Assembly: GCF_024521635.1 (NCBI RefSeq)
Contig: NW_026250403.1
Coordinates: 1,922,001-1,986,000 of the forward strand
Direction of reading: 5' to 3'
Origin: Tricharina praecox
Lineage: Eukaryota
Length of the DNA stretch: 64,000 bases
Part shown: piece by piece, positions 43,801-64,000 of the stretch
Layout: every line of letters begins with the position of its first letter
Numbering within the stretch: the stretch's first letter is position 1
Notes under the pieces: generated by a model
Databases searched by the model: none
The model's input: the letters and a program-made list of their open reading frames with translations, nothing else
Told to the model about the DNA's origin: nothing
Program-made: the position numbers and the translations under genes

Positions 43801-44121
43801 GCCCACCGCAGGAACACATTGCCACTTCAAACACAGATCCGCAATCTCCGCCAGCAACTCGGGTGTCATGTTGTCTGCAGAAACAGCAGGATCGAGGAAA
43901 TGAAATACTCGAAGAAGGATGCTAGCCGCGACCGGGCTGTCGTCAGGGGCGATAGCGAGTCGATTCTCGAGGTCAAACTTATTGCCTAGGACGTTGGATG
44001 CAAGGGACACAGCAGTGACGGAAACCTGGATCGAAGGGAGAGGTTTTGGGAGAATGACAAGCCCGTCGCCTTTGGAATCCAGAACAACCAGGTTCGGGAT
44101 TAAAGAGAAGGGAGAATCCAT
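40823..44121 (-). CDS. Two-exon protein: N-terminal fungal BTB/POZ-like domain, long Glu/Pro-rich acidic linker, C-terminal CUE/UBA-like helical domain
   Basis: Exon 44121-43593 joins exon 43533-40823 in frame across intron 43592-43534 (GTTAGT..CTAAT..CAG). BTB-like pattern LDSKGDGLVIL..QVSVTAVSLASNVL..PDDSPVAASILLRVFH..LLAEIADLCLKWQC. The true start could lie further upstream. Confidence 0.7.
41468..41581. repeat. 21-bp coding tandem repeat, ~5 copies, encoding EEDTDQQ
   Basis: Repeated ctcctgctggtcggtatcctc units. Confidence 0.95.
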
Positions 44122-44134
44122 TCCGCGGTATATG

Positions 44135-44256
44135 CTGTTTGGGAGTATATGCTGTTTGGAAGTACGGTGTTTGGGAGTACGGTGTTTGGGAGTACGGTGT
44201 TTGGGAGTACGGTGTTTGAGAGTGATGTATTTGGGAGTATGGTGTTTGGGAGTGTT
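44135..44256. repeat. 15-bp tandem repeat (GTGTTTGGGAGTACG-like), ~8 imperfect copies, just upstream of the BTB-like gene
   Basis: ggtgtttgggagtac repeated; reads KHRTP on the minus strand in frame with the downstream ATG. Confidence 0.9.
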
Positions 44257-46665
44257 TTGTTGGTTGTAGGTTAGGATGTAGGGTGAGGAAGATACAACGA
44301 GGGACGAAGTAGGTAAGTAAGTGCGGGCTAGGTGAGAAGGTGAAGTATAGGAATGAGCCACAGTTGTTTGCTGGTTTGTAGGTACTTGGCTTGCTCTCTG
44401 GAGGTGAAGACGCTAGCTTCGATGGTTGACGTCGATACTGCTTAGGGTTGTCTTCTTCATGTACCTATCCGTATTGGACCCTTAATTTGCCGTAAATACA
44501 AAAGAAGGCTTTTTGATTCCCGGAATCATCGGCCTGTCCCTTCCGTAGGCTTATGTCATGTTCCTTGCTGTGAAAATAACGATCGCACACTTTCGATCAG
44601 ATTTGCTGAAGACACCAAGGCTTTCTTGTTTCGACTCAGGTCCTGTTACGGTGCCCCTTCAGTTTCTTGTTTCTATATAACCATCTTTGCACTCGACCTT
44701 ATTATATAGAACATGGCAGTTATAGATTCTTTTCCTCGCCACTGTCTCCAGCCGCTGCCGCCGCGAGCTCGATGTGGGTCCCCTCTGCTGCTCTCTGCCC
44801 AGCCCTCTCCTTGTTCCCCTCAATACTTGTTTTATTTACTCATTGAATGTATGAGACCTGCCTAGATCATAGCAAAACGCACTCCAAAAGTAGCCTCCTC
44901 AGAGCTTCGCACAATCACGTGACCGCAATGACATCCCGAGTGACATCATATGGATATCAGCCACAACCCAAGTCGCCATACTGACTCTGGGGGTAGTCGA
45001 TAATGTATAGAAAGGTTTCTGGGTTCTTCCTCGTACCTGCAGCCATATGAATACTGAAATACTGTATCCCAAGTACATACATAGTATTGCTTTCATATTC
45101 TTTCTAAAAGTCGAGTGGCGTTGTGGCGCAGAGGGACATGTGTTGATTGCTGTCTCGGAAGTGGCTAATGAACTCTCCTTCTTCGCCGCCGACGCCGGCG
45201 ACCGTCCAAGCTCAAGCGTGAAGCTTCTATGTAAGTATTTACAGACGCAATTCAATCTTTGGACCAGTGCTTTCCGCAGTACTCGGCGAATTGTGCATCA
45301 AACATGCCGCGATGCAAGCGTACGGCTTGCAAGCAACATGAAAAGTTTAGGGACGTCGAACACGAAGAATTATTCATCTTCTCGGAGTCGGCCGTCGGGG
45401 TTGGGTGTCGCGGCGCTGATTGGTGGTAAAACAGCGGCAGGCCGAGGTCACACAGACCGTAGGTAGCACTCGAAGCTCGGAAGCGATAGGAATGTCTCGG
45501 GGAAGAGAGTGCCGCTGCCTATGCTGTAACTGCAACATACTTTTCTCTCCGGATCTTACGCCACCGACACTTTACTATGGATCCGCTGCAGCTCGAGCTC
45601 TGTGATCCCTACATAGCTCTGGACTTGATTCTCCGTTTCCTCGTATGTACATACACCACGGGAAATGCCTTACGACATTCACTCTCGGCCCGATCGTCTG
45701 CACCTCCGCTCCTTGCCCATCACCCCGGTTCGTTTGCGTTATTTATCGCGATTTTCTCCTGTCAAGCTCGAGGATGCATGTTGGACCAATAGGTGTCCAC
45801 GAGGCCCTCTTTGTAAGTGCTACACGTGAGTCGAGCTTCATCTGAGTTTCAGGAACATGTCTCGTGGATGAGATCGGCTCGAGCGCGCGAATCAAAAAGC
45901 GTGGGGAAACAGGGTGTGCCATGCACGGATTACGTACGTCGCGCTATGCTCGTTGGGGTCGAGTCATTTGTCTCGGCCACTTGCGGCCGGCAGGAAGCCG
46001 CGGTCTTCGCTGGAGGGGAACAGAACGCAGAGAGGACCGTGGGAGAGGCAGGAGAAAAAGTGTCTGCAGGCTGGGAGGTATGTAACTATAATATGTATGC
46101 GACTTCACATTCTCACGATCCTCGATTCACGACGGCCGAGAATCAGAGGGGCTGATGTTGGGACGTGTTAATCACTCATCCGTTGCGGGCGGAGCACTCT
46201 GGAGTCTGCAGTATTCTACATACCTGTACCTGGAGTGCAGTGAGAGTATCGAGAAGGTCGTTTCGGACCCGGCAAGAGAGATGCAGCGATTCTCCGCGAA
46301 ATGTGCCGAACCAAGTCTTCTGCCACCGTGGAGTGGAGCTGTCACTGCGAAACTTTGAATGGTGGTCATGGCTTACTCAGCCGGGAGCAAGGCTTGCTCC
46401 AAAATTCTTCCGGCAATGTGTTAGTCGCTAGTGCCCGGCAAAGCATGGGAGGTGTTCCGCCTCACCGCCAATACCCCAACCAACCAATCTGCAACCTCCA
46501 ACATCCACCTCCACTTCCCCATCACCCACACCTCCCCCAAAACTCTCAACCCTCCACCCTCCACCCACCACCCACTGAAACCATTCCCTCAGAGGAGCTG
46601 GTCTTTCACTACTACCCCCATCCATCTCCTTCACATCATCCACTTTTCATCAGCTCGTCGCAATC

Positions 46666-49600
46666 ATGTTGCGGTCGACTCTTCGTTCATCGCGCCGGAT
46701 GGGCGGCTCTCTGAACCCACGGTGCGGCCTCGTTCGGCAACCCGCCACAGCTTACCAGTCATCGCTATCTACACGACCCACCGCCTGCGGCTCATTATCG
46801 ACATACCCAAAACCTGTTGCGGTACAAAAACGACATTACGCTGCCATCCCCGGCGTGGTATGTATCTCCCGTCCTCGGCCAAACGGAACTCTCCGGGGGT
46901 GTACTTTAAACTCTCCTCCCCCGGGTTTTCGAGGGAAGCGAACATGAAAATGAAAGCCTGCTGACAGGTGTGTGTGCTCCGTCTGCTACTAGGATCCGAA
47001 CGATGCTTTCTTACAAGGAAACACCGCGAACTACATCGATGAAATGTACATGGCGTGGAAAAAAGACCCCACCAGCGTCCACATCTCATGGCAGGTCTAC
47101 TTTCGCAACATGGAAGGCAACGGCCCCGCTTCGCAGGCGTTCCAGGCTCCCCCCACTATTGTTCCCACCGCTACCGGCGGCATCCCATCGATCGTCCCCG
47201 GCGCCAACCTCGGCGGTAACACTGACGTCACCAAGCACTTGAAGGTACAGCTCCTCGTCCGCGCCTACCAGGTTCGTGGTCACCACAAAGCAAAGATCGA
47301 TCCTCTTGGCATTCGCTCGGATGCAGATCTGCGACAGGCCAGGCCGCGAGAGTTGGAACTGGACCACTACCAGTTCAACGAGAGGGACCTGGACGACGAG
47401 TACACTCTTGGACCCGGTATCTTGCCCAGATTCGCTACCGGAGGTCGGGAAACGATGACTCTGAGAGAGATCGTGGCCGCGTGCGAGAAGATCTACTGTG
47501 GTTCTATCGGAATAGAGTACGTGCACATTCCCGACAGGGACCAGTGCGACTGGATCCGTGAGCGTGTCGAGATCCCCACTCCGTACAAGTACAACCAGGA
47601 CGAGAAGCGCAGAATCCTGGACCGTCTCATTTGGTCTTCCTCATTCGAGACCTTCCTTTCCACGAAATACCCCAACGACAAGCGATTCGGACTCGAGGGC
47701 TGTGAGGCCTTGGTTCCAGGAATGAAGGCTTTGATCGATCGCTCTGTGGACTATGGTGTAAAGGATGTCGTCATCGGTATGCCCCATCGTGGTCGTCTCA
47801 ACATCTTGTCCAACGTCGTGCGGAAACCCAACGAGTCGATCTTCAGCGAGTTCAGCGGTTCTGCCGAGCCTGGTGACGAGGGTTCCGGTGACGTCAAGTA
47901 CCATTTGGGTATGAACTTCGAGCGGCCCACTCCTTCCGGAAAGCGCGTTCAGCTGTCTTTGGTTGCCAACCCTTCGCACTTGGAAGCTGAGGACCCGGTG
48001 GTCCTTGGAAAGACCCGTGCCATCCAGCACTTCAACAACGATGAGGTCGAGCACAAGACCGCCATGAGCGTTTTGCTGCACGGTGATGCTGCCTTCGCTG
48101 CGCAGGGAGTCGTATACGAGACTCTCGGCTTCCACGCTCTGCCCGCTTTCTCTACCGGCGGTACCATCCACGTCATTGTCAACAACCAGATCGGTTTCAC
48201 CACCGACCCGCGGTTTGCGCGCTCCACCCCGTACTGCTCGGACATTGCAAAATCTATCGACGCTCCCATCTTCCATGTCAACGCCGACGACACCGAAGCC
48301 GTCACCTTCGTTTGTCAACTGGCTGCCGACTGGCGTGCCGAGTATAAGCGCGATGTCGTCATCGATCTCGTCTGCTACCGCAAGCACGGGCACAACGAGA
48401 CCGACCAGCCCAGCTTCACCCAGCCGCTGATGTACAAGAAGATTGCCGAGAAGGACCCTGTTCTCTCCATGTACATCAAACAGCTGATGGATGAGGGAAC
48501 TTTCACCAAGGAGGATATCGAGGAGCACAAGAACTGGTATGTTGTTTTATCTGGTGGCTTCTGATGGAATGTCCGTCTAACATCGATTATAGGGTTTGGG
48601 GAATGCTTGAGGATAGCTTCTCAAAATCGAAGGATTACCAGGCGACCTCTCGGGAATGGCTCACTAGTGCCTGGAACGGCTTCAAGTCACCCAAGGAGCT
48701 GGCTACTGAAGTCCTTCCTCACTTGCCCACCGCTGTCTCCGAGGAAAACATCAAGGAGATTGCCAATGTCATCTCCTCAGTTCCCGAGTCGTTCACGGTT
48801 CACCGCAACCTGAAGCGTATTCTAGCCAACAGGAAGAAGGTTGTCGAGGAGGGTACTGGGATTGACTGGGCTACCGCCGAAGCGCTCGCTTTTGGAAGTT
48901 TGCTCAGAGAGGGAAAACACATCCGTGTGTCCGGACAAGATGTCGAGCGTGGTACTTTCTCCCAGCGTCACGCCGTCCTCCACGACCAGGAAAATGAGGG
49001 AACCTATACTCCCCTTCAGCACGTCTCTGAGGATCAGGCCTCGTTTGCCATCTGCAACTCCTCCCTGAGTGAGTTCGGAGCGTAAGTACAATGTGTTACC
49101 ATCGGCGTTATGTGAGTGCTAATATATGATTGTAGCCTCGGTTTCGAGTACGGATACTCGCTTACTTCTCCTGATGCCCTCGTCATGTGGGAGGCGCAAT
49201 TCGGTGACTTTGCCAACAACGCTCAGTGCATCATTGATCAGTTTATCGCCTCCGGAGAGTCCAAGTGGCTCCAGCGTACCGGTCTGGTAATGTCGCTTCC
49301 TCACGGTTACGACGGACAAGGACCCGAGCACTCTTCAGGCAGGATTGAGCGATACCTTCAGCTCTGTAACGAAGACTCCCGTGTCTTCCCCTCGGCTGAG
49401 AAGCTCGACCGCCAGCACCAGGACTGCAACATGCAGATTGCCTACATGACTACCCCCGCCAATCTGTTCCACATCCTGCGAAGACAGATGAACCGCCAGT
49501 TCCGCAAGCCGCTCATCATCTTCTTTTCCAAGGCGCTCCTTCGCCACCCTATTGCGCGCTCCGACCTTGCGGATCTCACTGGCGAGTCACACTTCCAGTG

Positions 49601-50039
49601 GCTCATCCCCGATCCTGCCCACGCCACTGGCGCCCTCAAGGCACCCGAGGAGTGCAAGCGTCTGCTCGTGTGCACCGGTCAGGTGTACGCGCAGCTCCAC
49701 AAACACCGCGCGGCCAAAGGTGTAGACGATGTAGCAATTGCGCGGGTGGAGCAATTGCACCCATTCCCCTTCGCCCAGCTCCGTGACGAGCTGGAGAAGT
49801 ATCCGAATGTGGAGGAGATTGTTTGGACTCAGGAAGAGCCCCTCAACGCCGGTTCTTGGGCGTACGTGCAACCCCGCATGGAGACCATCCTCCGACAGTC
49901 TTCCAAACATTCGGACAAGCACATCCGATACGCTGGCCGTGCGCCGAGTGCCTCAACTGCCACCGGCATCAAGTCTGGCCACATCCGGGAGGAGGAGGAG
50001 CTTCTTAACCAGGCTCTCGGTCTGGCGCCGTTGGAGTAG
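46666..50039 (+). CDS. KGD1: Mitochondrial 2-oxoglutarate dehydrogenase E1 component; 4 exons
   Basis: Arg/Ser-rich presequence from ATG 46666. Introns 46858-46992, 48537-48592 and 49082-49135. Motifs [57 protein letters not shown] and [14 protein letters not shown]. Confidence 0.98.
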
Positions 50040-52131
50040 GTAAATAACAATTGATGAGCTTTTTTTCCGTGCCGTTAGAGGGTGTAAGGAGGGGTGTTTG
50101 GTTTTTTTGCTTTCTCTTTACACGTGACTTTTCCATCTTTTCCTTGGCTTTTTTCTTATTTGGCTGCGATGTGGGTTCTCTTTTCTTTTCCTTCCCGTTC
50201 TTAGTTGTTTTGGCACCCGATAACTTGCTTGCTTTAACTTCATCCCGCCTTTCTTTGTGGCTATGGTTCTTGCATGAGGGTTGGAAGAGAGTGGGTGGAT
50301 GAGACGATGGAGAGCACGAGTTGTATATCTACTTTGAGACGGAAGCTGTTTGTTTGCGCGCTATGATGTTTCCTTTTTTAAGTTACCCTCATACCATTTA
50401 CCATCAGGACCAATTATCTGCTACTTTCGGCCCGTATGTGGTGTCTTTTCGGCCAGATTGATGGCAACACGACATACGTATGGTTTATTCGTAAGAAACG
50501 AGACTTGGGGCACCTCTTGAGTCTGGCCGACTATCGACTAATGAACTTTCCACTCTACCCTGTCGCATTTGGTACATATGGTGCCAGGCCGCGGCCGGCT
50601 GAGATGAAGCCCGGACGCTCCCCGCTCCGGGATTAATACTGGAACTATATACGAGCCCCGAGTCAGCCCAATCCACAGAGTAGTCCATCTGTCCATCCAT
50701 CCAGGGCATTCCTGCAATCTACATACGACTCGAGCCGCACGATCAGCAGCCAAGCTGTGCTTCACTCCGCGACCACCCCAGCGCAAGCCCGGGTTGAGGT
50801 CTGGCTAGCCGGGGACATCCTCGACCTGTCACTAACGGGGTGGGGGAAGGGGGGATCTTCCCGCGGCAACCTGCAGAGCAGAGTTGCTCGGTGATATTCT
50901 ACATACGGGAAGCCTGTCGATGACTAATTAGGGGAGGTGGGACTCGAGTGGATGGATGTGTTCGGGAACTGGCGGCGACTGTGCGCGGGAATTGCAAAGT
51001 GCTACATAAGTAAGTATGTAGGCCGCGCAAAAGTGCGGGTGGCCGCTTTTGCCTGCGTGGGCCTGGGGGGGCTGTGGAGATGGCCGGCTGGCCGGTGGGA
51101 GATGATTATCTGGGTTTACATGGCACTAGATATCGCTCGGCAATCGCTTAGATCTATCCTACATGGGGTAAATCAATCTCTCCACTTCCGGGAGTGGGGG
51201 CATCACGACTCGCGAGAGGAGGCGGAACTACCTATGTATTCAGGGCTTTTTACAAAGTAATGTCGTGACCAAAGTCGACTGAATATATTGCGATGAAATG
51301 AAAGAAACATAAATGAATCAGATGAAATGCTCATTATATCTAAAGAAATCCGAAACTGGTCGAAAACACTACGATGAAAGCAAAAGAAATAGTCAAAATC
51401 ATCAGACATCGACCCTAGTAAATCTGTATTCTCTGAGACTGCTAGATATAAATCCGAGCGGTAGTACTACTGGAGACCTTCGGCATCAATCGGGCCCCAG
51501 TTTTTGCTACTGAATGTACCGGTAAGGGCTACGTTACTCACCGATGCTGTTAGTTCTTTAGCTTTCGAAATTTGAATGACGGGTACTGACCTGGAGGTGT
51601 GATGTTGCTTATCACATGTGACTGTCGCTGTTCTCGCTCGCCGTTATCCCGAATATCTGATACTTCTCCATCGGGGACTCTATCAGTACAGAGTTTCTCA
51701 AGTAAGGGACGAGTCAATAACTTGCCTATTTTTGATGGGTCTGGAAGGATAATTGGCCCGGGAAAATGGTTCCAGCTGGAGCTCGCGCTGGGATCGCGGG
51801 AGGGGTCCAGCGACCTACTTTGATGCTGATCCGGCTCGAAGATATCATCAATTGCTACGTGTTCATCCAGAGACTGTCAGTAAAGACGTTTCACGAGATG
51901 GGCAAAGTCGGTAGCATGCCTTTTTGGGGTTCGCCTCGAGGAAGACTACGAGGCAGCAAATCACTCCAGAAGCTGCTCCCGCTGGGATCCCCAAGGGGGT
52001 CGGGTGACGCAATCCGATGCTGTTCTTCCTCGTCCCCATCAAGGACTATGCAGATAGGGTGCTCGGGTGCCACCTATTAATCCAGAGATCGTGTCAGCAA
52101 AGCGTTCCCCAAGAAATGGATGAAGGCAGTA

Positions 52132-55100
52132 TCATGCCTTCCTTTGATCCTCGCCTTCATCTCCCTCGTCTGCATCTCCCTCGTCCGTGACATCTATATA
52201 ACTCCGGCCGATACCCCTCTTCTTGAAGCAAGAATCACAATACCACTTCTCGTTGTGGCGCGGTGCCCATGACAACCCAACACAGCTTAAATGAAACCAC
52301 TTGCGTGGACACTTTTCACCATCACACGCCAGCAACATTTCGTCGCTAGTCTCGTTACAGTGACAGCACGTATTTTTTCCTTCCCCCTTATCGGATTGGA
52401 ATAAGGTGGGATTTAGTTGTAGTCGTATTTGAGCTTCCTGTTGGAGCTGTAATAGCCGGAAATACTCATAGAGTTGCCACTGAGAACAACTTTGAACTTG
52501 TAGCTTGAGTTCACCCCATGTCGGATTCCAATCACCCGGCGGCCGGAGGAAATCGAGCTTTTCGATGATGGGTATATGTTCCTTCAGTGGATATCGTTTG
52601 TCAAGCGTAGCGATTTCAGAAGGCTTGTTGCTGAGTGTGAAAACAGCTTCGAGCTCCTGGCGGGTCATCATAGGCAGACCTGATGGTATCCGATCGCCAA
52701 TTCGCACAGCAATTTTTTCTGCGAATATATTAGTACATATTGCACTAAACCTAGCCACTGGTAAAACTTACCGGATTGCGCCACGAGAATGGACATATAA
52801 AGCTCTGGGAGATTCAGCCGATATGCCCGTGACCTTGCTTCTCCCCAAGTCTTGACCTCGAATATCGAACTGTAGTCTTCGCAATCCCTTCCATCGGTCG
52901 CTATGAGGCAGTCGTCGAGCTGGGCGGGATCTTTCGAGGCGAAGGTGAGTAAAAGCGGGGAGTCTCCGCAGATCCGATGATTATTCCTGAGTGTAAGCAA
53001 TTGCAATTGCGCAAAATGATCCAAGTCCTTCATCCGCTGCAGCCTGTGGTATTCCATGAATTTCCATTCCAGCTCTGAATATGGCAGTACTCCTCTTCCG
53101 GTTTGAGGATCGTCAAAGAAAATCTGGATAGGGCTGTTAGATAGGACTTCATTCAAAGCCTGTGTATATGCAACCGTTTCGCGTGGCGACATTCTTTCGA
53201 CTTCCTTCTCGATTTGGTTGGCAAACTGAACGATGAAGCGTATGTAACGAGTGATTTTCAATTTCTCGGCAGATGTGAGAAGCAGTTTACGTAGCTCAGT
53301 ACCCGACGGGATGAGGGGCTTAGAGGAGTACTCCCTGAGAACGTTTTGCTAAATATGGCATTAGATGGATTCCTACAAATGGAACGGATTACGTTACCCT
53401 ATGAAGCAGTGATACGGCACTTGCGGTACGTCCGCCCAAAAGTAAGAAGGATGACACCAGTCTTAGAGCCCTATAATCGGAAAGAAGAAGCCTGATCCCA
53501 GCGAGATGCTGTGCCCATTTAGGAAAACCGATAGCCCCATCGGCGTGTTTGACGTCTGGTATCGGCTTCTCCCACAGACGATACGCTGCTTCTATCTGTT
53601 GCGGCACAATTTGCTTATGTGAGTCATAGTTACGGGGGTTCCTTACTTTCCGAAGCGAATGTATCCTCGAAAGTCCTCCTACTACGGGGCTACCCTCCTC
53701 CACCACAAAAAACCAACACTCGTGCTTTGGATGCCCTAGATTCCTCTCAGTTCCGAATACACTTCCGTCAGGAGGGTCCTCGTATGTTGGTCTGGCCTTT
53801 GTATCAATGTCTGCTGGCCTGGTAAGAGTGAGAGGCGCCGTGCTCCTAGTTGATCGTTTGCGCGATATGCTTATCAAGTCTAGAACCTAGGGCTCTCGTG
53901 TTAGCCGGGAAGGCTTAGAGAACCTATCCATACTACCTCAGTATTTTCAGGCGGATTCTGACGGTGCTTTGCTAAATCGGCGTGATAATCTTTTATGTGC
54001 CTCTGAAGCGCCACTTTCGAAGGTAGGCCAATGTCCTGGTATGTGCAGTTTTCATCGGGGCACTTGAATGGCAAATCATGTCTATCTTCATGTTTCTTGC
54101 GCTGGAGAGCTGTCTCAAACCCTTCGATAGTAGGTAATGGACATGATTGTCGATTGCACTTGTAGAGTTTCTGTCCATACAGTCTTCGTAGAGTTTCCAC
54201 GTCGTCTGGATTAGTTGTGCTTGCCGCATTAGAGTCCCCCTCGAGAATATCCTCCAACATCTTCCGGAGTCGCCTGTTTGCTCTTTCTATGACCAACGGG
54301 TTGTTATGGTTGCACCACGCTTCAAGCGCTGGTCCCACAAATCAGTCATCTTTTTCTATTTCCATAAGATCGATGTAGTACCTTCAGTTCCGCCGCCTAT
54401 CTTTCGCCCTAACTGTCTGCGATATTCAACGATCATTCTAAGGCCTGGATGTCCCGCGTTTTCCGACCGAGGAACCATTGATTGACTGGAAAGCACCTGT
54501 TTAGCCTTCTGAGTGGAGTGCTTCTCGAAAACTCGTCGAAGAGGATCGGAGAGTGTATCGCATTGGGGATAGCGGCGGTAAGCTTCCAATATGTGCTTCA
54601 CCCAGCTTCCTTGCGCATAGTCGTAAAGTCGTAGGTCGCCGTTCAGAATCAAGGCAGTGGCTTCTTCGTCGCCTACATCTTCATCGAAACACCTGAAGGC
54701 AAAATAATTTGTGCAGGTAGTCGCGATTTCGAGCTGTGATATCCCGCGATCCACGAACGGGCCGCTATGAGGGCTCAGAAGGTACCTGAATGCTGTGAGC
54801 GTCACATCTTGGCAATGGTAGCGATAACTAACTCCTTTGCAGAAAAATGCACGAAAACCAAGGTATCTTCGCCGACAATCTCCACAATTGGCCCACATAT
54901 ATTTCGGAGTTGTGAACGGAGAGGCCTTTCGGAATTGTGAACAGTGATGTGGCCGGATATTATCGCACAAGCGTCTTCTAGTTCTCTCATGGTAAGAGCT
55001 CGGGTTGCACAAGTCATCCAACGGAGTACTTTCTTCGCCAAAGCTCGTTGCTCTTGGTCTAACGAGTTGATCCGGTCCAAGATTCTTTCATAGCTATATA

Positions 55101-57124
55101 TGCGGCATCTAAGTAACATTGCGCAATCGCATGAGTAAAGGGCACTCACGCTTGATCGAGCCCTTTTGGGAGGTTGTTTAGAGTTTCGGTAATTTGCTTG
55201 ATCGTCACCTTGGAGAGCAAGCCTTTGATGACCAACCGTACCCATAGAAACATGCCTTCCCTTGGTTTAGCATATGCGCACTGGCGCCCAAGACGAGGAG
55301 TATTACCATCAGCACGACCAGAGAGTGAATTGATGATGTGCTCTCGCATATCTGGTGCCTCTTCTAGTTCCAGCTCCTCGAATAAGTCGTCAGTAGCTGA
55401 TTCGATGTATGTGCGAATATCTTTCTTGTTCTGTCATGCAGTGTACAATCAGTCAGCTTCACGTTTAGATTCTAGCCAAATGAATTATGAGCGTGCGTAC
55501 CTTGTTTCCGACAGCAATTCGTTTAGTCTTCTTCAGGAGAAACTTGCGTATGTCCGGAAGGTCTTGGCTTGCAACAAATAGCCTTACTGTGCCATTGAAC
55601 GGAGATTCGACCAAATATCTCGACAATATTGGTAGAAGGGTTGCGCGTTCCGCTGAGGGAAGCTCATCTAAACCATCAATGATGACGTAGATGTGACTTG
55701 AGGTGGATGGCGAACTCGCGCTAATCAGGCTGCTCAAGATCGTCTTGCACTTTAAGGAGTTGATCGAATGCGGGCTAGCTACGTACTCCGCGTACACATA
55801 AGGTATAAGCTGCTCATCATGAAGTATCATCTGATATATGAAGCTCCGGAGTATTGCTAGACAGGTGTTCTTGTCTGGTTCTTTGTAGCTGCAGAAGAAG
55901 TATAGCACAGGTGGTGGGTTGGGGTGTTGGGATTCGAAGTAATCAAGCACCGATGCAGTGAGAATTGTTTTCCCTGTAGCAAGAACGCAATGTTAGGATT
56001 CGCATGGGGTGGATCTATAAACATCACTCACCTGCGCCTGGTTTTCCGGTAAGCCACAAGTTGCAATCTCCAGCGAGCCATTCCTGTATTTCCACCGATC
56101 GAAGAAGCCACTTGCTTGTTCTCGGTGTTCTTAACTGTAGGGCATTGTCTTTTGATACATCCACGTCTGCTGGAGAGAGCCAATCCGAGCATTGCTTCTT
56201 TCGCTTCGCTCCTCTTTCCCGCGTAGTCTCCTCAAACCGCTCCCGCGCGAATTCTCTGGATATTTGCGCTCTTGCAATATCCTCGGCACAAGCTTCATTG
56301 TCGATCAATTGCTGGTGGCTTTTGATGTTCAACAAGATGTTCCGAAATCTGGACTCAAAGTCGTTCCATGAGAAACTGAACAGTATCTTCCAGGCTAGCT
56401 CAAGTAATAGGTTAACTAGAGTTTAACGGAGATAATTGAGGAGAGTGTCTTTATGTACCTCCTCGTCGGAAGAATTTGAGAGTCCGTCTATAAAAATCTA
56501 GAATGTCCTCATACAGAAGTGAGATGACATACTGTATCCGCTCGCTGTAGCAGAAGATGGTTGCATAAAGGGAGAAACGGGGGAGATTCTCGCCGATTTT
56601 CTGAAAGGCATCCAGTAACTTTTCGAAGCTCTCGATGTATCCGCCAGATAACTAAGTACTTGCTTAGTTGTCTCGTTGGTAAAAGGAAAATACCGTGCAA
56701 TTCAGCTAAGCTGAACGGCGTTGCCATAGTACCTGCAAGAGTAACTTTAAGGGTCCCTGAAGAAGACGTGGGCGTGAGCGGCGAGTCTGATTTGTAATAC
56801 TTCGGGAACCAAGGAATAACAAACCCAGAGAAGAGATCCTATCTCAGGCTTCGCCTGAATGAGGACTTCAATCACCTTCGCGTATTGTGACAGGCAGTTG
56901 ATGAATGGCTCAAGGCGCTTCATGTTCCGTAGCGACTTTCTTGTACTCTGCTCCGCTTCCAGATTCGTAATCAATACCCATACCTCATCCACGGTGTTGA
57001 TTCGATGGAACGATTTCTTTTCTTCAGCATTAAGACTGTCCAGAAAACGGCCGATTGCTCGTTCGAACGCTGATAGTACTGCTGATGGTACTGCTGCTGG
57101 TGGTACTGCTGCCGGTAGTGACAT
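52132..57124 (-). CDS. NLR-like NACHT (STAND) NTPase with helical N-terminal domain, winged helix, tandem C2H2 fingers and C-terminal ING-type PHD finger; 13 exons, ~1430 aa, possibly extended at the 3' end
   Basis: Exons 57124-56825, 56756-56733, 56651-56459, 56394-56032, 55973-55501, 55430-55307, 55255-55150, 55093-54833, 54785-54382, 54328-53937, 53886-53398, 53348-52772 and 52718-52132 total 4293 nt with all phases compatible. Walker A LWLTGKPGAG|KT, YFFC, Walker B YVIIDGLDE, ADGMFLWVRLV, LPKGLDQAYERIL, VHFSAKEYL. Confidence 0.82.
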
Positions 57125-57393
57125 GCTGACTCGAGGCGTGAAGGACGATAAGAAAGATTGTGAGCGTGTGAAGTGGCAATGCGTGCGTGCGAAACCCTGG
57201 GTTTAAGTGCGCATGCGAAACTCCCAATTCAAGTGCGCGTGAGCGGGGTCCTGGGTTACACAGGCTCCGCCCTGGCTCCGCCCTGGCCACGCCCTCAGCC
57301 CCCACACCTAGGCGAGAATTGAACATTCCCGGTATATATGCCTTCCCGGCACACCCCAAGCACAAACTGCACAAACTACACGAGCGTTTCGCC
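57125..57393. promoter_or_regulatory. Putative 269-bp bidirectional promoter between the NACHT and SNF2 genes
   Basis: Divergent ATGs at 57124 (-) and 57394 (+). Contains TATATA at ~57333 and a repeated CACAAACT. Confidence 0.55.
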
Positions 57394-60300
57394 ATGAACA
57401 GATCAACCACTTCGTCCATCACTCGGTCTACCGATTTTCTTTCTGTTCCGAGCACAAAGCGTCAGCGCACCAGCAAGGACGGAAGATGGCGCTCGAGATC
57501 ACCAAGCGAGTCATCGAATGGAGATATGTCCCGATCAACCACCCCGATGTTCGACCAGAGCCCATCGCCTAGTGCTGGTAGCTCAACATCCATGGAGTTT
57601 GAGTGGAGCCAAAGCATCGGCCAGCAAGCACAGATCGCACAAGGGGAAGATTGTCACACTGCAGACGAAGTCGCAGACGACGAAGAATGTTTTGGTACAG
57701 TGAGTCTTTTGGGCCGGGTACTTGCAGGCATTGAACATGGTCTCTGAGATAACAAGATTTGCTGTCATTGCAGCTCTACCAGAGACGTTTTAGAAACCCT
57801 CCAAGCTCGATGTTCCAGTTCATCTGTATTTCACGTATCTTTAACGATCGTCGCACCTGCATCGAAAAGTGTGGAGCTGTCTTTGCAGACTGGAGACGGC
57901 ACAATCCTCGGCCATATTGAGCAGAATATTCGAACTACACTTCATTCTTTGCTCGTTCGAGATCTGGTTAGGATCCAAGGCGTTGCTCTTCTCCCGTTCG
58001 GTTACAACCAAGTTCGCTCCAAATCGAATCAGAAGGTGACAACCGAAGTCTATCTCAACGTTTTCGGCCCTCCAGAGGTTGCAGCTCCAGTAGGGAGGTT
58101 TCTGTCGGACAATTCGGTGTTTCTACAACATCCAATATTCCCGGAACCCGGTTTCGCGTACAAAAACCCTCATTTGATCTCAAAATGTTATTCCGGAATT
58201 ATCACCGAGTGCACAGCCACTGGCGGAGTCCCGGTAATACCAAACAAGCCAGTACTGAATAATTGTACAGCAGTCCTTGAGGCCACCGAGTTGCTGGACT
58301 TCTTCAACAACATCGGCAAAGCAGCGATAATGGATGAAGTACATGGTGACCATAATCTCAAAACCCCACTTATGAGGTGATTAACCCGCTGCTTTTTCAA
58401 GCAATTAAGCTAATCCTTCGAAGTCACCAAAAGCAGGCTTTATATTTTCTCCTACGAAGGGAACGGGGACTTTCTGTCTTCGACACGTCTTCAGCCGCAA
58501 TAGGAAAGATTACATGGTTAGCGAAGACATCGAAATTTTCCATTTCTTATACTGATGCTGCACCATGCGTGATCTAGTGATATCAAGGGAGGGATACTTG
58601 CGGATCATATGGGACTCGGAAAAACATTATCGATTCTATCTTTGATTACCGGCACGTTGGAAGAAGCCCGCCGAGTGAGAGCCCAAGAGCCCATCGGCAG
58701 AATTTGTGCGAGTGGAACTACCCTCATCGTGACTCCCGTTTCAAGTCAGTGGCTCATCGTCTTCGTGAAGATAACTCACCGACTCGTAAGCTAACGTATC
58801 ATTTCAGCGCTGGGAAACTGGGAGCAACAGATATCGACGTATGAACCCTCTTTCTGGAAACATAATCCACTTTTATGTCTGACGATTATTAGGCATGTCC
58901 TACCAGGAAGGTTGAGCGTACTCGTCTACCATGGCAAGAACCGGGCCGGAAACTCGAATGCCGCAACCCTGTCTCGATACGACATTATACTTACAACTCC
59001 ATCCGTCGTCTCCCATGAATGGAGCTCTGCTCATCATCCACTTCACGAGCTGGAATTTTACCGTCTCGTGATCGATGAGGCGCACGATATTCGAACCGAG
59101 AAGACACAGCGCTCGCGAGCTATATGCGCTCTCAATGCCGGACGTCGCTGGGCCGTCACAGGAACACCAATCCAAAACAATCTTATGGACATCGCCACGC
59201 TTTTCAAGTTCTTGCGGTACAAGCCTCTCCATACTGCCGTCGGCTTCAAAAAATACGTCCTTACCTCGCAGCCCGGGACAAAAACCGGCATTGATAATCT
59301 TCGGTCTGCATTGAAAGCAGTTTGCTTACGTAGAGCAAAGAGCATCATCGATTTACCGGAAAGGAAGGAGCAGATAAGGTTCCTGAGTTTCAACACTGAG
59401 GAGAAGGCCTTGTACGAATTCCATAAACGGCTTTTATCCCGAGAATATAACGCTATGTCCTCATCCGGTCCTGCGGAGGCTCTCAAATGTTTATTAAAGC
59501 TGCGCATGATTTGTGACCACGGACATGACCTGATATCTACGGGATCGTCGACGGCATCTTCCGCTCTTGAACCATCGATAACCTGCTGCGTTTGTAATCA
59601 GCAGATTACAAGTCACATGCAGTTTGAAGGGCTGGGCTGTCCCCATCGATCCATGTGTGCTGGATGCATAGAAATAGTGCCACTAACCGACAGCGACATG
59701 AGAGACTGTGATCAGTGCTCCGTCGACGAGGTTACGACACCGGAAGCGACCCCAAGCTTACTACTATCGGACTATCCAGTCTGTCCGCGCCCTTCCACCA
59801 AGGTCAAAGCGTTGCTACAGATGATTCTTAGCGAGAATACAGACGACGGTAACGTGAAATCAAAGCAGTGAGTTTGCAGCATCAACCCGCCTCATCCTCC
59901 GTGACTTACACCCGGGCAGTGTTGTTTTTTCCGAATGGACACGAATGCTCGACCTCGTTGGGTTCGCTTTGCACAATTCGGGGATCAAATTTTGCCGTCT
60001 AGATGGATCGATGCAAAGATCCCGACGCGACGCAGCCCTCTGTGAATATCGCGAGAATCCGCAGTGTACTGTGATATTGATATCCCTCATGGCCGGCGGA
60101 GTAGGGTACGCGCATGCTCTCGCCCATGTTTCGGGGTCCTGGCTGACAACAGATTTTCAGAATTGACCTTACCTGTGCGTCTAGAGTACACCTCATGGAG
60201 CCGCACTGGTATACACATCCATCCCGCTCGAGTATGCCTGCAGAGCTGATGAGTTACATACAGGAATCCGATGGTCGAGCTTCAAGCGCTTGAGCGAGTC

Positions 60301-60664
60301 CACAGGTTCGGTCAACAACGTGACGTATTGATAACTCGATACATCATGCAAGATTCGTTCGAAAACGTAAGCACGCACTCCTTAATGAAATGATCGGTAC
60401 AAAGGGAGGGGGGAAAAGGGCTGACTTCGAGAAGGACATCCTGAGGCGCCAGAAACTGAAGTTGGATATGGCGAAACAGTCACTGGACGCGGGAAAGGCT
60501 CACATCATGAAGTGTGATATCAGGCAGGAGATCATCGCAGTAAGTTCCCTTGATGTTCGCTCTTTGGGCAGTAAGCTGATCATAAATAGAGCCTGGGCTC
60601 GATGTTGTCAACGGGCTCATTATCGTCAGACCCTGGAGGAAATGCCCACGAACAAGCGTTCTAG
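57394..60664 (+). CDS. Rad5/Rad16/SMARCA3-like SNF2 ATPase with an internal RING-like finger, multi-exon
   Basis: SHQKQAL, motif I GGILADHMGLGKT, TTLIVTPVS, motif II RLVIDEAH, motif III RWAVTGTPIQN, RING-like CCVC..CPHRSMCAGC..CDQC, STKVKAL, VVFSEWTRMLDLV, RLDGSM, LISLMAGGVG|IDLT, MEPHW|NPMVELQALERVHRFGQ. Last predicted exon 60590-60664. Confidence 0.88.
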
Positions 60665-61017
60665 TTATCACTCGGTCGTCTGCAACGCTCCAGTCATGCG
60701 CAGAAAACTCGCTGGCTGTATGGCAATATGGAAATGTAATCATTCTCTACGAAGTCAAGGGGAATCATACAAATGGATTGAGAAAAGCAACTGTTTGAGT
60801 GTCGGCAGAGAAAAAAAAGTTGCGGAAAGTCATAACTGCCGGTCTTATTTCGTAGCACACTCCCATACTTCCAACCGCATTTCACGTTTCACATCTGACC
60901 CTACTTTACAAGGCGTTTCCGATGCAAAAAAGCATTTATCCTCGATCCCAGTATTCAAGCCGACCATTCATATTGCCCCAGAGTCAGAGTACCATCAACA
61001 ATCCAACCATTCCCAAA

Positions 61018-61725
61018 CTAGACCAACACAATCCTTCCGGCACCGCGAGCACGGCGTGTTGCACTGAGGCAGTAGCTAGCCACATATCCCGCGGCAAAGA
61101 ACAGCAGCACGCTGACAACCAGCGTGTAAATATTCAGAGTTCTTCCCTCGCCCTGGTACCTGCGTTTCTGGGCTTCCACCAACGCGAACAGCGTTACGAC
61201 GACGAGCGTGTTTGCGACGATGGCAGCGATGACGATGCGGAGAGAAAGGAGCCTGCGGAGCCCAGGGCAGCTCTGCATGTTCCACAGGCAGACGTAGATT
61301 ATGGTGACGGCGAGGACGATCGTGCTGGCGATCTTGCTGTATAGCCCAAGGGTGCGCGCGCGCTCGGGGTACGAGCTGTTGGAGTGGTGCGCGAAAAGAC
61401 ACCATACGAACACGGTGTGCGCCAGGATGGGGATGATGCTGAGCGCGGAAATTATGTGTCTCTGGAATGGCGAGCAATCAGCACTGAAGGGAAGCGACGG
61501 GATGGAACATGTGTGGATTATGCGTACCTTGGTGGCGTCCTCGGGGTACCTGCTCTGGCACCCGTGGTGCGAACTCTCAGACTCCATGATGGCAGCTTGG
61601 ATAACGGAGACGGGAACGGTCTCCTCGTTTTGGAGGTTTCGTGAGGCCATCCAGAGACGGAGTTCCCTCGCGGTCTGAAGGCTCAGGATGACCGGATCCT
61701 GCTCTGCGACTGACGACTCCGACAT
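61018..61725 (-). CDS. Hypothetical small multi-pass membrane protein (~4 TM); probable in-frame intron 61462-61527
   Basis: ATG at 61725, several hydrophobic helices, and a GTACGC..GCTGAT..CAG intron of 66 nt. Confidence 0.6.
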   Translation of the reverse strand: MSESSVAEQDPVILSLQTARELRLWMASRNLQNEETVPVSVIQAAIMESESSHHGCQSRYPEDATKVRIIHTCSIPSLPFSADCSPFQRHIISALSIIPILAHTVFVWCLFAHHSNSSYPERARTLGLYSKIASTIVLAVTIIYVCLWNMQSCPGLRRLLSLRIVIAAIVANTLVVVTLFALVEAQKRRYQGEGRTLNIYTLVVSVLLFFAAGYVASYCLSATRRARGAGRIVLV

Positions 61726-64000
61726 GGTGAATAGGACTAGAGTGCTACTTGGCGATTGTTACGCGATTTGATGATGGTTTTTCGTTCAATGTTGTTATGG
61801 ATGGCGGCTGCATAGGACGGTGGGGGAGGGCTGGAATATATACCTATGCGGGCTCCGAGGCTGTGCATGCACCATCTACTCTATGCACCATGCACCCATG
61901 CGATCTACCTACCCAGTTACTTGTTGCGTGTTTCTCGATAACAACCCCACAGCCACTGAGTCAGGGTCCGTGATACCCGCCATGCATAAGGCGCGTGATT
62001 ATGCACTAACCTGTTCCATAGAACCTTTCCGTGAGGCTTCCACCTCCATTCCGTGCTGTTTCCTTGAACTACATACTTTCCAAGTTCTCATGGAAGGCTC
62101 AACGCTCAAGCGCTCCAGAGTCCAGGCCCTGTTATTGAAATGCCTACCAATTTTCCGGAATCATGCACTACCAAGGTAGAGACTGTAGAGTAGGACTGAG
62201 AGCCCCAGTACTTACTCTACCGGTATCCTGGTGAGAAGTGGAAGTCAGTACGAGTTTCCTTAGTCCCAAGTCCTTAACGATATTAATAAGCTGACACTAT
62301 TCCAAATACAAATCCAGAGAAGCAGATCTTCCATCTTCAAAGGGCAAACCCCTGCGGCCGGTTGCTGGCGGACGGTGGCCTGACCTATTATGTATGTATG
62401 TTGGGCGAAACTGACCCGGCCCCCATGAAAAGAATTCATCCCATGGTAAAGAGTTTCAAGAAAACGATCTATTGTCTCCCTACGTCACTAATAGTACGCA
62501 AGTGCGGCGAAGCAGTCACAGCGGCATTAGTTATGCAGTACTACGGTAGTTAGTACTAGGTACCTATGGTGATTCCCGGAGCGGACGAATATTCCTCCGC
62601 TACCAAGCACTTAGGTACTTCAACACACCGAGCCAACTACCTACATTCTGATATGTGCGATAGTGAACTGGTCACCGTCGTGGGGGAAACCGAAAAGCTT
62701 CTACATTCGTTCCCATTCCCGTATATAGCGGAACTGGGACGGTGGTCACAGACAGAGATCGATAGTAACCAGTTAATTGGGGATATGTACAGGCAACTCC
62801 AAAGAGCTATGAAACAACGAAATACGGTATCTACCAGACACCAGACTACCGTACGAAGACGTCGGACGTCCTTGAGGCTTTAATTGCTGGCAAGGCGGGC
62901 GGGGCGATGTATTGTACAATGCATACCCAAACCGCAACCGCGACAGCACTGCACGCCCACGGGATGGTCGTTCGGCGGTTAGCCGCCTAGAATAGGTGAG
63001 TAGATGGCCGCGTGTAACTGCAAGCCGCGTGTACATGACATGCGTGACACTCCAAAGCTCCAAGCCACGCAGTGCGGGGGATTCTTGCTCTCGGTACGCC
63101 TCGGGGGGGGGGGGGGGGGGGGGGTTTACTTTTGGCGTCACTTCAGGAACGGTAGTTTAGACTTTCAAATCCCTAAGATCATGCCAAAGGCAGTCGACCG
63201 CGTCCGGCGAACCTCGAATGATGATGTGACGGCAAACGTGGAAGCTGGAGATGGAGGCGGGGGTCGAGTCCATCTCGGAGCACTACTAATACATATCACG
63301 GGTTCACAAGCATCGAGTTCGTCTCCCCGTCACGGAAAAAACCCCCGCGTGGCCCAGTGGTCTGGTACATGCAATCGGCGAGGGGAGTGGAATGAAACCT
63401 CTCGGTCCAATCCGGGGTAAGAAACCTTTCATTCCGCTCTTGGGGTTTCCAAGCCACCCCACTGGGGGGGTGATGGTTTTTGCGGGAAGTCGAAACCCGG
63501 GGTGCATGGAGTATCACTCGTCGCAAACCCAAAAGCTGCTAATATCACTTTTTCTTTTTCTTTTCCGTTTAATCATCATGTTCGTTACTTCCCAACGTAA
63601 AGCCACAAACCGGAAACCAGCAGCAACGTTCCGGAGATAGATGAGCCGTGTGGTTGTGTAGACGCACTGGTGACTGACGCCTCGCAATCGGGCATACTAT
63701 GCACTGCAACAAATTTATAACCGCCCCGGATATGTAGGAGATAGGTAGTAGAGGCGCCAGCTACCGGAAGGGCTCGTCCCGACGATGGCCCTCTACCGGT
63801 ATCGGTCAGGAATAAAGACCCCCCCTCCCCCACCCCCGCATCACGCTCCTCGCCTGGTTTGTATTTTTGCGTGAGCGGCTTGCTTTTTTTTGGCTCTGCG
63901 ACAGGTAACCATCGACTCCGTTCGGAGTATATATACTACCTAGGTTCCGCCCAGCCCTGCTCACTGGTTCCGCTCATTCAATATCATTCCATCCCAGCCT

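Follow-up and report, generated by a model that had tools for sequence, protein, structure and literature searches.

The 64,000-nucleotide stretch of Tricharina praecox DNA analyzed here (the window, from whose first letter all positions are counted) contains two genes that diverge from a short gap, one encoding a NACHT protein, a STAND NTPase of the NOD-like receptor (NLR) type, and the other an SNF2 ATPase with a RING-like finger. The locus raises the question of whether two such different genes are neighbors by accident or because they act together. A preliminary description of the window had proposed a two-component system in which the NACHT protein senses chromatin and controls the SNF2 protein. 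The pair and the gap between the genes are as follows.

51467..57124, minus strand: coding sequence of the NLR-like STAND NTPase gene (NACHT gene); 17 exons, 16 introns, 1567 amino acids (aa).
57125..57393, no strand: divergent intergenic region of 269 bp, between the NACHT ATG at 57124 (minus) and the SNF2 ATG at 57394 (plus).
57394..60664, plus strand: coding sequence of the SNF2 gene; 11 exons, 10 introns; identified with the public 902-aa protein P0008.

Both genes were present on the strands first proposed for them and were rich in introns (16 in the NACHT gene and 10 in the SNF2 gene), and the gap between the outward-facing ATGs measured 269 bp (57125-57393), as described. The adjacency of NACHT and SNF2 genes in many distant fungi suggests that they work together as an undescribed unit. 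In our preferred reading, which draws on comparison of sequences, the window carries one copy of a two-gene module that filamentous ascomycetes have conserved and inherited as a unit and that has a surveillance output, and we give this reading about an even chance of being correct. That the genes form a coupled module of some kind, all functional versions taken together, appears very probable. The recurrent linkage, the co-divergence and the splicing of both genes in the proposed system were borne out; chromatin sensing and control of the SNF2 protein are inferred from domain logic.

The linkage was assessed in metagenome contigs scanned with P0008 alone, which gave 27 loci in about 320 kb, or 19 groups after copies were merged. 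NACHT neighbors were located by tblastn with the window NACHT model and the family members P0002 and P0004. In 14 of the 27 loci, the SNF2 gene directly adjoined a NACHT homolog that aligned through the finger region. By group, ten of 19 had a NACHT neighbor, four had none and five were too short (L001=L012, L006, L010, L014, and L023). The groups without a NACHT gene despite room on both sides were L002=L003, L024, L026, and L027, and the last three of these were weak SNF2 matches only (bit scores of 104 and 47, and none on re-search). The remainder of the 320 kb held only one further NACHT match.

The preliminary description had expected a divergent orientation, which was seen in only half of the linked groups. 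Five groups were head-to-head (L005, L007=L008=L009, L011, L013, and L022), with 394-1960 bp, mostly the unaligned SNF2 N-terminus, between the first aligned residues. The other five were tail-to-tail (L004, L015=L016, L017=L018=L025, L020, and L019/L021), and here the NACHT frame ended about 370-690 bp past the point where the SNF2 alignment stopped, some 60 aa short of the P0008 stop codon. The SNF2 proteins of L005, which is head-to-head, and of L016/L017, which are tail-to-tail, are close relatives (p-distance 0.33), so the arrangement changed while the adjacency was kept. Since the linkage persists in tail-to-tail loci, a shared promoter is not the whole reason for it. No third gene in common was found in the flanks of seven long loci by tblastx and reading of open reading frames (ORFs), and the flanking genes differed. 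No transposase-like ORF was seen in the same flanks by these means, with Pfam applied to the tails only, and the window pair had no terminal inverted or long direct repeats in its flanks.

The two proteins diverged in step. Pairwise distances of the SNF2 core and of the NACHT region, compared over 12 pairs, were correlated with r=0.945, a value that none of 2000 Mantel permutations reached, and the two sets of distances yielded the same groups. This shows that the NACHT and SNF2 genes were inherited together stably, without partner swapping. Adjacency of the homologs in other fungi (14 of the 27 metagenome loci and three pairs in named genomes) and congruent divergence of the two proteins (r=0.945 over 12 pairs) were the checks suggested at the outset, and both came out in favor of linkage.

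Searches of named genomes gave a similar picture. The NACHT exon search returned only seven proteins, the best three of which, P0001 and P0002 of Wilcoxina mikolae and P0003 of Trichophaea hybrida, were 54-57% identical. The SNF2 exon search found 214 relatives at an expect value (E) of at most 1e-3, of which the best 120 were inspected. After P0008 itself came two W. mikolae proteins (P0009 and P0010) at 56% identity, and the rest of the matches listed were at 44% or below. Three pairs were recognized.

NACHT KAF8244003 and SNF2 KAF8244002: W. mikolae, contig of 288,320 bp.
NACHT KAF8241747 and SNF2 KAF8241749: W. mikolae, contig of 84,673 bp; the two are separated by one gene model.
NACHT KAF8536492 and SNF2 KAF8536491: Trichophaea hybrida, contig of 135,969 bp.

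One W. mikolae genome therefore contains two paralogous NACHT/SNF2 pairs. Among the best 120 of the 214 SNF2 matches, no SNF2 protein on the same contig was indicated for ten finger-bearing proteins (from Clonostachys, Xylaria, Paramyrothecium, Kalaharituber (two), Aspergillus, Rhypophila, Mariannaea, Botrytis, and Microthyrium), a result that we regard as uninformative.

The NACHT protein has the order helical DUF7708, NACHT, winged helix, helical stretch, finger pair, about 480 aa without a known fold, PHD finger, and acidic tail. Its recognizable parts are listed here.

55501..56394, minus strand: NACHT/NPHP3_N P-loop exons; Walker A GKPGAGKT at aa 289-296, Walker B DGLDE.
54833..55093, minus strand: winged-helix exon after the NACHT domain; Pfam GPIID_WHD, E 5.2e-10.
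53964..54158, minus strand: two tandem C2H2-like zinc fingers, aa 807-871; C-x4-C-x16-H-x3-H and C-x4-C-x15-H-x4-H.
52772..53886, minus strand: two exons without a recognizable family, 355 aa between the finger pair and the PHD finger.
52228..52368, minus strand: ING-type PHD finger, C4HC3, aa 1353-1399.

Pfam was run on single exons of each gene. NPHP3_N (E 9.5e-23) and NACHT (E 7.2e-5, exon 55465-55992) were recognized in the NACHT gene, and the GKPGAGKT and DGLDE motifs were kept in the partners at other loci. With the Pfam families, both Walker motifs and the winged helix all found, the initial assignment to the NACHT STAND NTPases holds. The DUF7708 N-terminus was weak on the window exon (E 0.0044) and clear in homologs (E 7.6e-20). 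A structural model of the family member P0004 (pLDDT 75) had an all-helical N-terminus and a STAND core, and its nucleotide-binding oligomerization domain (NOD) superposed on Cdc6/Orc1, Avs3, ZAR1, Dark, and MalT with Z values of 13-14.5 (for MalT, Z 13.1 and a root-mean-square deviation of 5.2 over 354 aligned residues). The fold search with the whole P0004 model matched the STAND/AAA+ core only and barely probed the N-terminal and finger parts. Pfam detected neither ANK, TPR, WD40, or LRR repeats nor a cell-death domain in the window NACHT protein.

The eight zinc ligands of the finger pair, together with a Y and two G residues, were invariant in 11 sequences (the window and ten loci) that share 24-32% identity, and this invariance of the ligands marks the pair as divergent zinc fingers. 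The C2H2 fingers of the preliminary description thus stand as to their ligands, but not as classical members, since no Pfam threshold was reached (the best match being zf-C2H2_aberr at E 0.16) and the spacing is longer than the classical one. The pair resembles a nucleic-acid-binding module, and its binding of DNA is putative. A profile of the finger region matched 3400 representative proteins at E of at most 1e-3 and 1360 at E of at most 1e-10. Ten long matching proteins that were looked up belonged to the Sordariomycetes, Eurotiomycetes, Leotiomycetes, Dothideomycetes, and Pezizomycetes, and the top match (P0130 of Clonostachys rosea, 951 aa, annotated as protein kinase domain-containing, with six matched stretches) shows that the finger module occurs beyond NACHT proteins.

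The Wilcoxina and Trichophaea homologs matched the window NACHT protein all the way from residue 1 to the end of the finger pair, and the tails thereafter were unrelated. ANK repeats follow the fingers in L004, L005, L011, L017, and L021 and a WW domain in L022; Pfam recognized nothing in the tails of L007 and L020. The tails of P0002 and P0003, from Wilcoxina and Trichophaea, include a KIX_2 domain (E 2.8e-9 and 1.5e-9), and the window protein ends in a PHD finger and an acidic stretch. The PHD finger is specific to the window locus; what marks the family as a whole is the finger pair, which does not vary, together with the SNF2 neighbor. Two loci carried further frames of note. L004 has another NACHT gene (932-3349, minus), located some 5 kb upstream of its SNF2 gene, whose tail consists of ANK-like repeats and in which no finger region aligned. 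In L013, the NACHT-finger frame is followed downstream by a 1056-aa open frame (571-3738, minus), which may or may not be part of the same gene and which contains ANK repeats and a HET domain (E 1.4e-6).

The PHD finger of the window protein is well defined. Its C4HC3 ligand set is complete, and its best 20 matches among solved chains were all ING1-5, Yng1/2, Pho23, or Png2 (E 3.4e-12 to 3.2e-7); the PHD-type Pfam models gave E values of 1.3e-5 and 2.3e-4, slightly short of the Pfam cut-offs. In the alignment the Trp of the WFH motif is retained, and the Tyr that precedes the first Cys in ING1-like proteins and ING2 is Cys here; we take these two aromatic positions to be the cage for trimethyl-lysine. 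The exons between the finger pair and the PHD finger (52772..53886) had no Pfam family at E of at most 0.01. The 226-aa C-terminal exon had no homolog among 874 candidates in a word-indexed search, and the ESM Atlas gave no usable match for the 192-aa exon. The 165-codon frame after the finger exon has no Met and so cannot begin a separate gene, and transcript contigs splice it to the finger exon.

The SNF2 model differed by one residue from P0008, which is annotated as 'SNF2 family N-terminal domain-containing protein [Tricharina praecox]', and its 324-aa exon was 100% identical. Two features beyond the ATPase lobes deserve separate mention.

57757..58376, plus strand: HIRAN-fold exon, from an AlphaFold2 model matched to the HLTF HIRAN domain by Foldseek.
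59584..59718, plus strand: RING-like C3HC4 finger, C637 to C681, between the two ATPase lobes.

Pfam recognized SNF2-rel_dom (E 2.8e-39) and Helicase_C in single exons and the same two families in P0008 (E 2.8e-61 and 1.5e-18, respectively), and the GxGKT, DEAH, and R..G.Q positions were invariant or nearly so among 56 homologs. The closest match among sequences of solved structures was Rad5 of Kluyveromyces lactis (E 2.4e-50), followed by generic remodelers. The 206-aa N-terminal exon was modeled by AlphaFold2 from 45 aligned sequences (mean pLDDT 73), and Foldseek gave 12 matches at E of at most 0.001; the best ten of the 12 were all HLTF HIRAN chains (E 3.9e-5, probability 1.00, TM score on the target 0.67-0.73), and K. 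lactis Rad5 came after HLTF. An Atlas search gave the same lead more weakly, and the Pfam HIRAN model matched neither the single exons nor P0008. The RING-like finger was upheld as a C3HC4 pattern in which seven Cys (C637, C640, C655, C661, C664, C678, and C681) were each at least 90% conserved in the 56 homologs, but not by Pfam, whose RING models gave no match in P0008 at E of at most 1 and weak, sub-threshold matches in relatives. With a HIRAN fold, SNF2 lobe 1, a RING-like finger, and SNF2 lobe 2 in this order, the layout is that of Rad5/HLTF, in agreement with the Rad5/SMARCA3-type translocase first proposed.

The layout does not make the protein an ortholog of Rad5 or HLTF, because it belongs to a multi-copy fungal clade with paralogs within one genome. 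In a FastTree phylogeny of 137 SNF2 rows (from which duplicate loci were excluded, as were rows in which fewer than 200 columns were filled), P0008 grouped with fungal proteins in a clade of 111 rows (local support 98), 97 of them database proteins, with many copies per genus. Animal TTF2 fell outside this clade, as did a group with plant proteins among its members, and the linked loci were scattered over three branches of the clade. W. mikolae has two SNF2 paralogs, each beside a NACHT paralog. The single-copy Rad5/Rad16 ortholog that the preliminary description had considered for the SNF2 gene is ruled out by these two paralogs and by the multi-copy clade of 111 of the 137 rows.

Both gene models were assembled by hand from GT-AG introns that leave the frames open, and transcripts were available from two public runs (X1 and X2; two studies, kind unrecorded), whose contigs were placed on 44001-64000 and which contain about three quarters of the region's words. 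The contigs omit introns at GT..AG ends in the KGD1, NACHT, and SNF2 genes and therefore derive from spliced RNA. Each of the two studies thus shows transcription and splicing of both genes of the pair, and contig depth is unable to rank genes by expression. Among the joints listed, contigs of X1/X2 confirmed 12 of the 16 NACHT-gene introns; of 15 listed joints, eight agreed with predicted NACHT introns (in one case once the donor had been moved by 3 nt), and 21 further joints were present. The mini-exon 56733-56756 was placed by comparison with homologs. Contig pieces 57757-58374, 58893-59867, and 60590 onward agreed with the SNF2 exon ends, and the SNF2 stop at 60664 was correct as proposed.

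The 3' end of the NACHT gene required revision.

51467..52137, minus strand: extension of the NACHT coding sequence at its 3' end; four short introns, three of them GC-AG; acidic low-complexity tail.

The joints 52072>52137, 51854>51920, 51662>51726, and 51528>51591 were present in contigs of both runs and correspond to the GC-AG introns 52074-52137 (64 nt), 51855-51919, and 51663-51725, followed by 51529-51590. The stop first placed at 52132 holds only if the 64-nt GC-AG intron 52074-52137 is retained. The contigs splice this intron out, the stop is lost with it, and the coding sequence therefore reaches 51467. Because the intron carries the stop, a transcript that retained it would encode a shorter isoform, terminating directly behind the PHD finger. 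The tail encoded at 51467-51920 (minus) contains the short motif DP..DPS.SS.W twice in an acidic low-complexity context, which may be a short linear interaction motif. The public proteins of T. praecox in the range of 288-2000 aa included none with the NACHT exon, and the SNF2 neighbor is annotated (P0008); the NACHT gene may be unannotated, or modeled otherwise, in the public record. In both runs, one contig matched the window as far as 52550 and then continued with unlike sequence, another matched from 57080 after unlike sequence, and eight contigs per run were less than 90% alike to the window. These divergent contigs and breaks may be paralogous or alternative transcripts. The X1 contig of the SNF2 gene extends at least 800 nt beyond the stop (60665-61461), across an ORF on the other strand (61018-61758), and would represent either a long 3' untranslated region or convergent overlapping transcripts.

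These features allow a mechanism to be proposed for the preferred reading, a surveillance module. The NACHT protein would be a nucleotide-gated sensor or switch whose variable tail reads the ligand, which would be the histone H3 tail in the window copy, and the invariant finger pair would tether it to DNA or to the SNF2 partner. The SNF2-RING protein would be the dedicated output, working as a translocase and ubiquitin ligase on chromatin or on the 3' ends of DNA. Several deep paralogs, identities of 54-57% between genera of one family, tail swapping and linkage in either orientation favor surveillance. This multi-copy, fast-diverging, and tail-swapping pattern, which is like that of other fungal NLRs, points to non-self or genome-conflict surveillance over housekeeping.

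A number of observations weigh against this reading. The coupling is deduced from domain logic, linkage, and co-divergence, rather than from binding, co-regulation, or phenotype, and linked genes with a common history correlate anyway, so r=0.945 shows stable linkage and not interaction. L003, which lies inside the fungal SNF2 clade, had no NACHT gene within about 5 kb on each side. The metagenome loci may represent few taxa and few studies, and linkage was counted from the SNF2 side only. Adjacency in the named genomes was judged by the order of GenBank accessions and by contigs of the same size, rather than from DNA, and is without orientation; in one of the pairs a gene model intervenes. 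The sequences of X1 and X2 were identical to the window across both genes and carry no information on polymorphism. A weaker point is that, among the best 120 of the 214 SNF2 matches, no SNF2 partner was seen for P0003 of Trichophaea or for the finger-NACHT proteins of Kalaharituber, Aspergillus, Botrytis, and Xylaria.

A more far-reaching proposal is an NLR-controlled DNA-translocase immune system, in which the finger-bearing NACHT protein, through its variable tail, would recognize nucleic acid or chromatin that is foreign or aberrant and would then unleash the HIRAN-SNF2-RING partner, which would attack the 3' ends of replicating invaders (intermediates of transposons, plasmids, or viruses, for example). 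We consider this proposal unlikely as it stands. If true, an NLR output would act on DNA and not on membranes, and the system would be a fungal counterpart of prokaryotic defense systems founded on STAND NTPases or on helicases.

The alternative that survives best keeps the coupled module and gives it an endogenous role, as an NTP-gated transcription or chromatin scaffold that recruits its own remodeler/E3 to loci or to stalled forks. CIITA and NLRC5 in animals and MalT in bacteria are models for such a regulator. The known tails of the nuclear or transcription type (the ING-type PHD here, KIX_2 in Wilcoxina and Trichophaea) would suit it, as would a finger pair that looks nucleic-acid-binding and the combination of HIRAN, SNF2, and RING seen in the fork remodelers Rad5 and HLTF; the P0004 NOD superposes on MalT, among many other STAND/AAA+ proteins, and both genes were transcribed in two runs without a known challenge. 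However, a regulator of this kind is hard to reconcile with several deeply diverged copies, including at least two pairs in one genome, with divergence to 54-57% identity between genera of one family, and with tails that elsewhere are mostly ANK repeats, like those of ordinary fungal NLRs; changes of orientation and at least one unlinked member suit a birth-and-death family better. We therefore hold an endogenous role to be possible but doubtful.

Tight linkage in either orientation is also what co-adapted alleles require, and the NACHT protein has an NLR-like architecture with a helical N-terminal domain. It could thus be the guard in an allorecognition system, monitoring the adjoining SNF2-RING protein, with mismatched alleles triggering death after hyphal fusion, as modeled by plp-1/sec-9 of Neurospora and Podospora. 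The ANK and HET frame downstream of the NACHT-finger frame in L013 would fit such a system, and PMC9815663, in the part of that paper drawn upon, argues that proximity of an NLR and its partner aids their joint inheritance. On the other hand, X1 and X2 did not differ from the window in these genes, the SNF2 protein is one of many paralogs and not the product of an essential single-copy gene, and Pfam identified no cell-death domain in the window NACHT protein. An allorecognition pair appears improbable on this evidence.

Linkage without functional coupling, through a duplicated or mobile block or through a shared promoter alone, would account for several copies per genome in unrelated contexts and for the compact 269-bp promoter region of the window pair. 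Yet the window pair has no flanking terminal inverted or long direct repeats, the flanks of the seven long loci revealed no transposase-like or common third gene by tblastx and ORF reading, tail-to-tail pairs are unable to share a promoter, and the copies, at 25-60% identity, are far older than a recently active element would be. Mere linkage is accordingly decidedly improbable. A chance meeting of two large gene families (3400 finger-profile proteins and 214 SNF2 relatives at E of at most 1e-3) is hardly credible and, as far as the data reach, is refuted by the same NACHT subfamily being the immediate neighbor in ten of 19 groups selected by SNF2 alone, with one other NACHT match in 320 kb, and by the three further pairs in named genomes.

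The intergenic region holds three tandem 11-nt GC-box-like units at 57263-57295, GGCTCCGCCCT, GGCTCCGCCCT, and GGCCACGCCCT. All three matches to the 11-nt pattern in the window are at this position, and none of 100 shuffles reached three. The units might be a binding site for the fingers, implying autoregulation. Of the surroundings, the neighboring gene for KGD1, the E1 component of 2-oxoglutarate dehydrogenase, was confirmed at 46504-50403 (plus; OxoGdeHyase_C, E 2.8e-57), with spliced contigs that contain three introns. The gene-poor DNA reported downstream of the pair is so only in part, since contigs reach about 62.6 kb and a 246-aa ORF lies at 61018-61758 (minus); this ORF matched no Pfam family.

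The pair can be compared with several known systems. In plp-1/sec-9, too, an NLR gene adjoins a non-homologous partner gene, and clusters of the NWD2/HET-S type likewise place an NLR-type STAND NTPase beside a non-homologous partner inherited with it as a unit. Whereas the partner in such modules is a small effector, pore-forming or enzymatic, or else a SNARE, the partner here is a HIRAN-SNF2-RING translocase of 900 aa. No shared amyloid motif was noticed in the NACHT/SNF2 pair, for which no motif search was made. Recurring adjacency across species, the mark of an NLR-adjacent partner, was found for this pair. The head-to-head plant pair RRS1-WRKY/RPS4, one member of which has a DNA-binding or nuclear domain as a possible sensor or decoy, offers another parallel, but here an SNF2 protein stands in place of a second NLR, the orientation is variable, the organisms are fungi, and the nucleotide-binding domain is NACHT and not NB-ARC. 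CIITA/NLRC5 and MalT-type proteins likewise join a STAND NTPase to nuclear, DNA-binding, or coactivator modules, and MalT was among the matches of the P0004 NOD, but outside the STAND core the sequences are unrelated. To our knowledge, neither CIITA/NLRC5 nor MalT-type proteins have a dedicated adjacent remodeler gene. The SNF2 protein shares the order HIRAN fold, SNF2 lobe 1, RING-like finger, and SNF2 lobe 2 with Rad5 of yeast and HLTF of humans. Unlike them, it belongs to a multi-copy clade, stands beside an NLR, and falls below the Pfam thresholds for HIRAN and RING, and its binding of 3' ends and ubiquitination of PCNA are only putative.

Published surveys bear on the separate parts of the module. 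In the portions of PMC9815663 on which we draw, effectors are encoded as direct genomic neighbors of NLR genes, and the neighbor screen was restricted to proteins of 200-400 aa. The portions of PMC12258605 used here report 34 NLRs with C-terminal C2H2 fingers in the Sordariales and discuss them as possible integrated decoys; these, too, combine a NACHT domain with C-terminal C2H2 fingers, often without canonical repeats. In contrast to that survey, the finger pair described here is an internal module that does not vary, in most cases has ANK repeats after it, and marks the SNF2-linked subfamily. In their main texts, PMC12258605 does not mention SNF2, helicase, or PHD and PMC9815663 does not mention SNF2, helicase, or zinc; the sole SNF2 passage of PMC7159879 concerns bacterial helicases of the restriction type. 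No description of a pairing of NLR and SNF2 genes was found in print, and supplementary tables of NLR neighbors may list such pairs. Finger-bearing fungal NLRs, NLRs with adjacent partners, and the Rad5/HLTF layout are already known; the NLR-SNF2 pairing is the new part.

No function or output is known for most fungal NLRs; the ones that have been worked out signal to effectors that damage membranes or act as enzymes, often encoded by adjoining genes. The NACHT-SNF2 pairing would imply a nuclear NLR output on DNA or chromatin. With two genes, several copies, and finger-bearing relatives in Aspergillus and Botrytis, genera with laboratory species, the module is testable, and the pairing would offer a first functional handle on the unexplained Rad5-like SNF2 paralogs of filamentous fungi.

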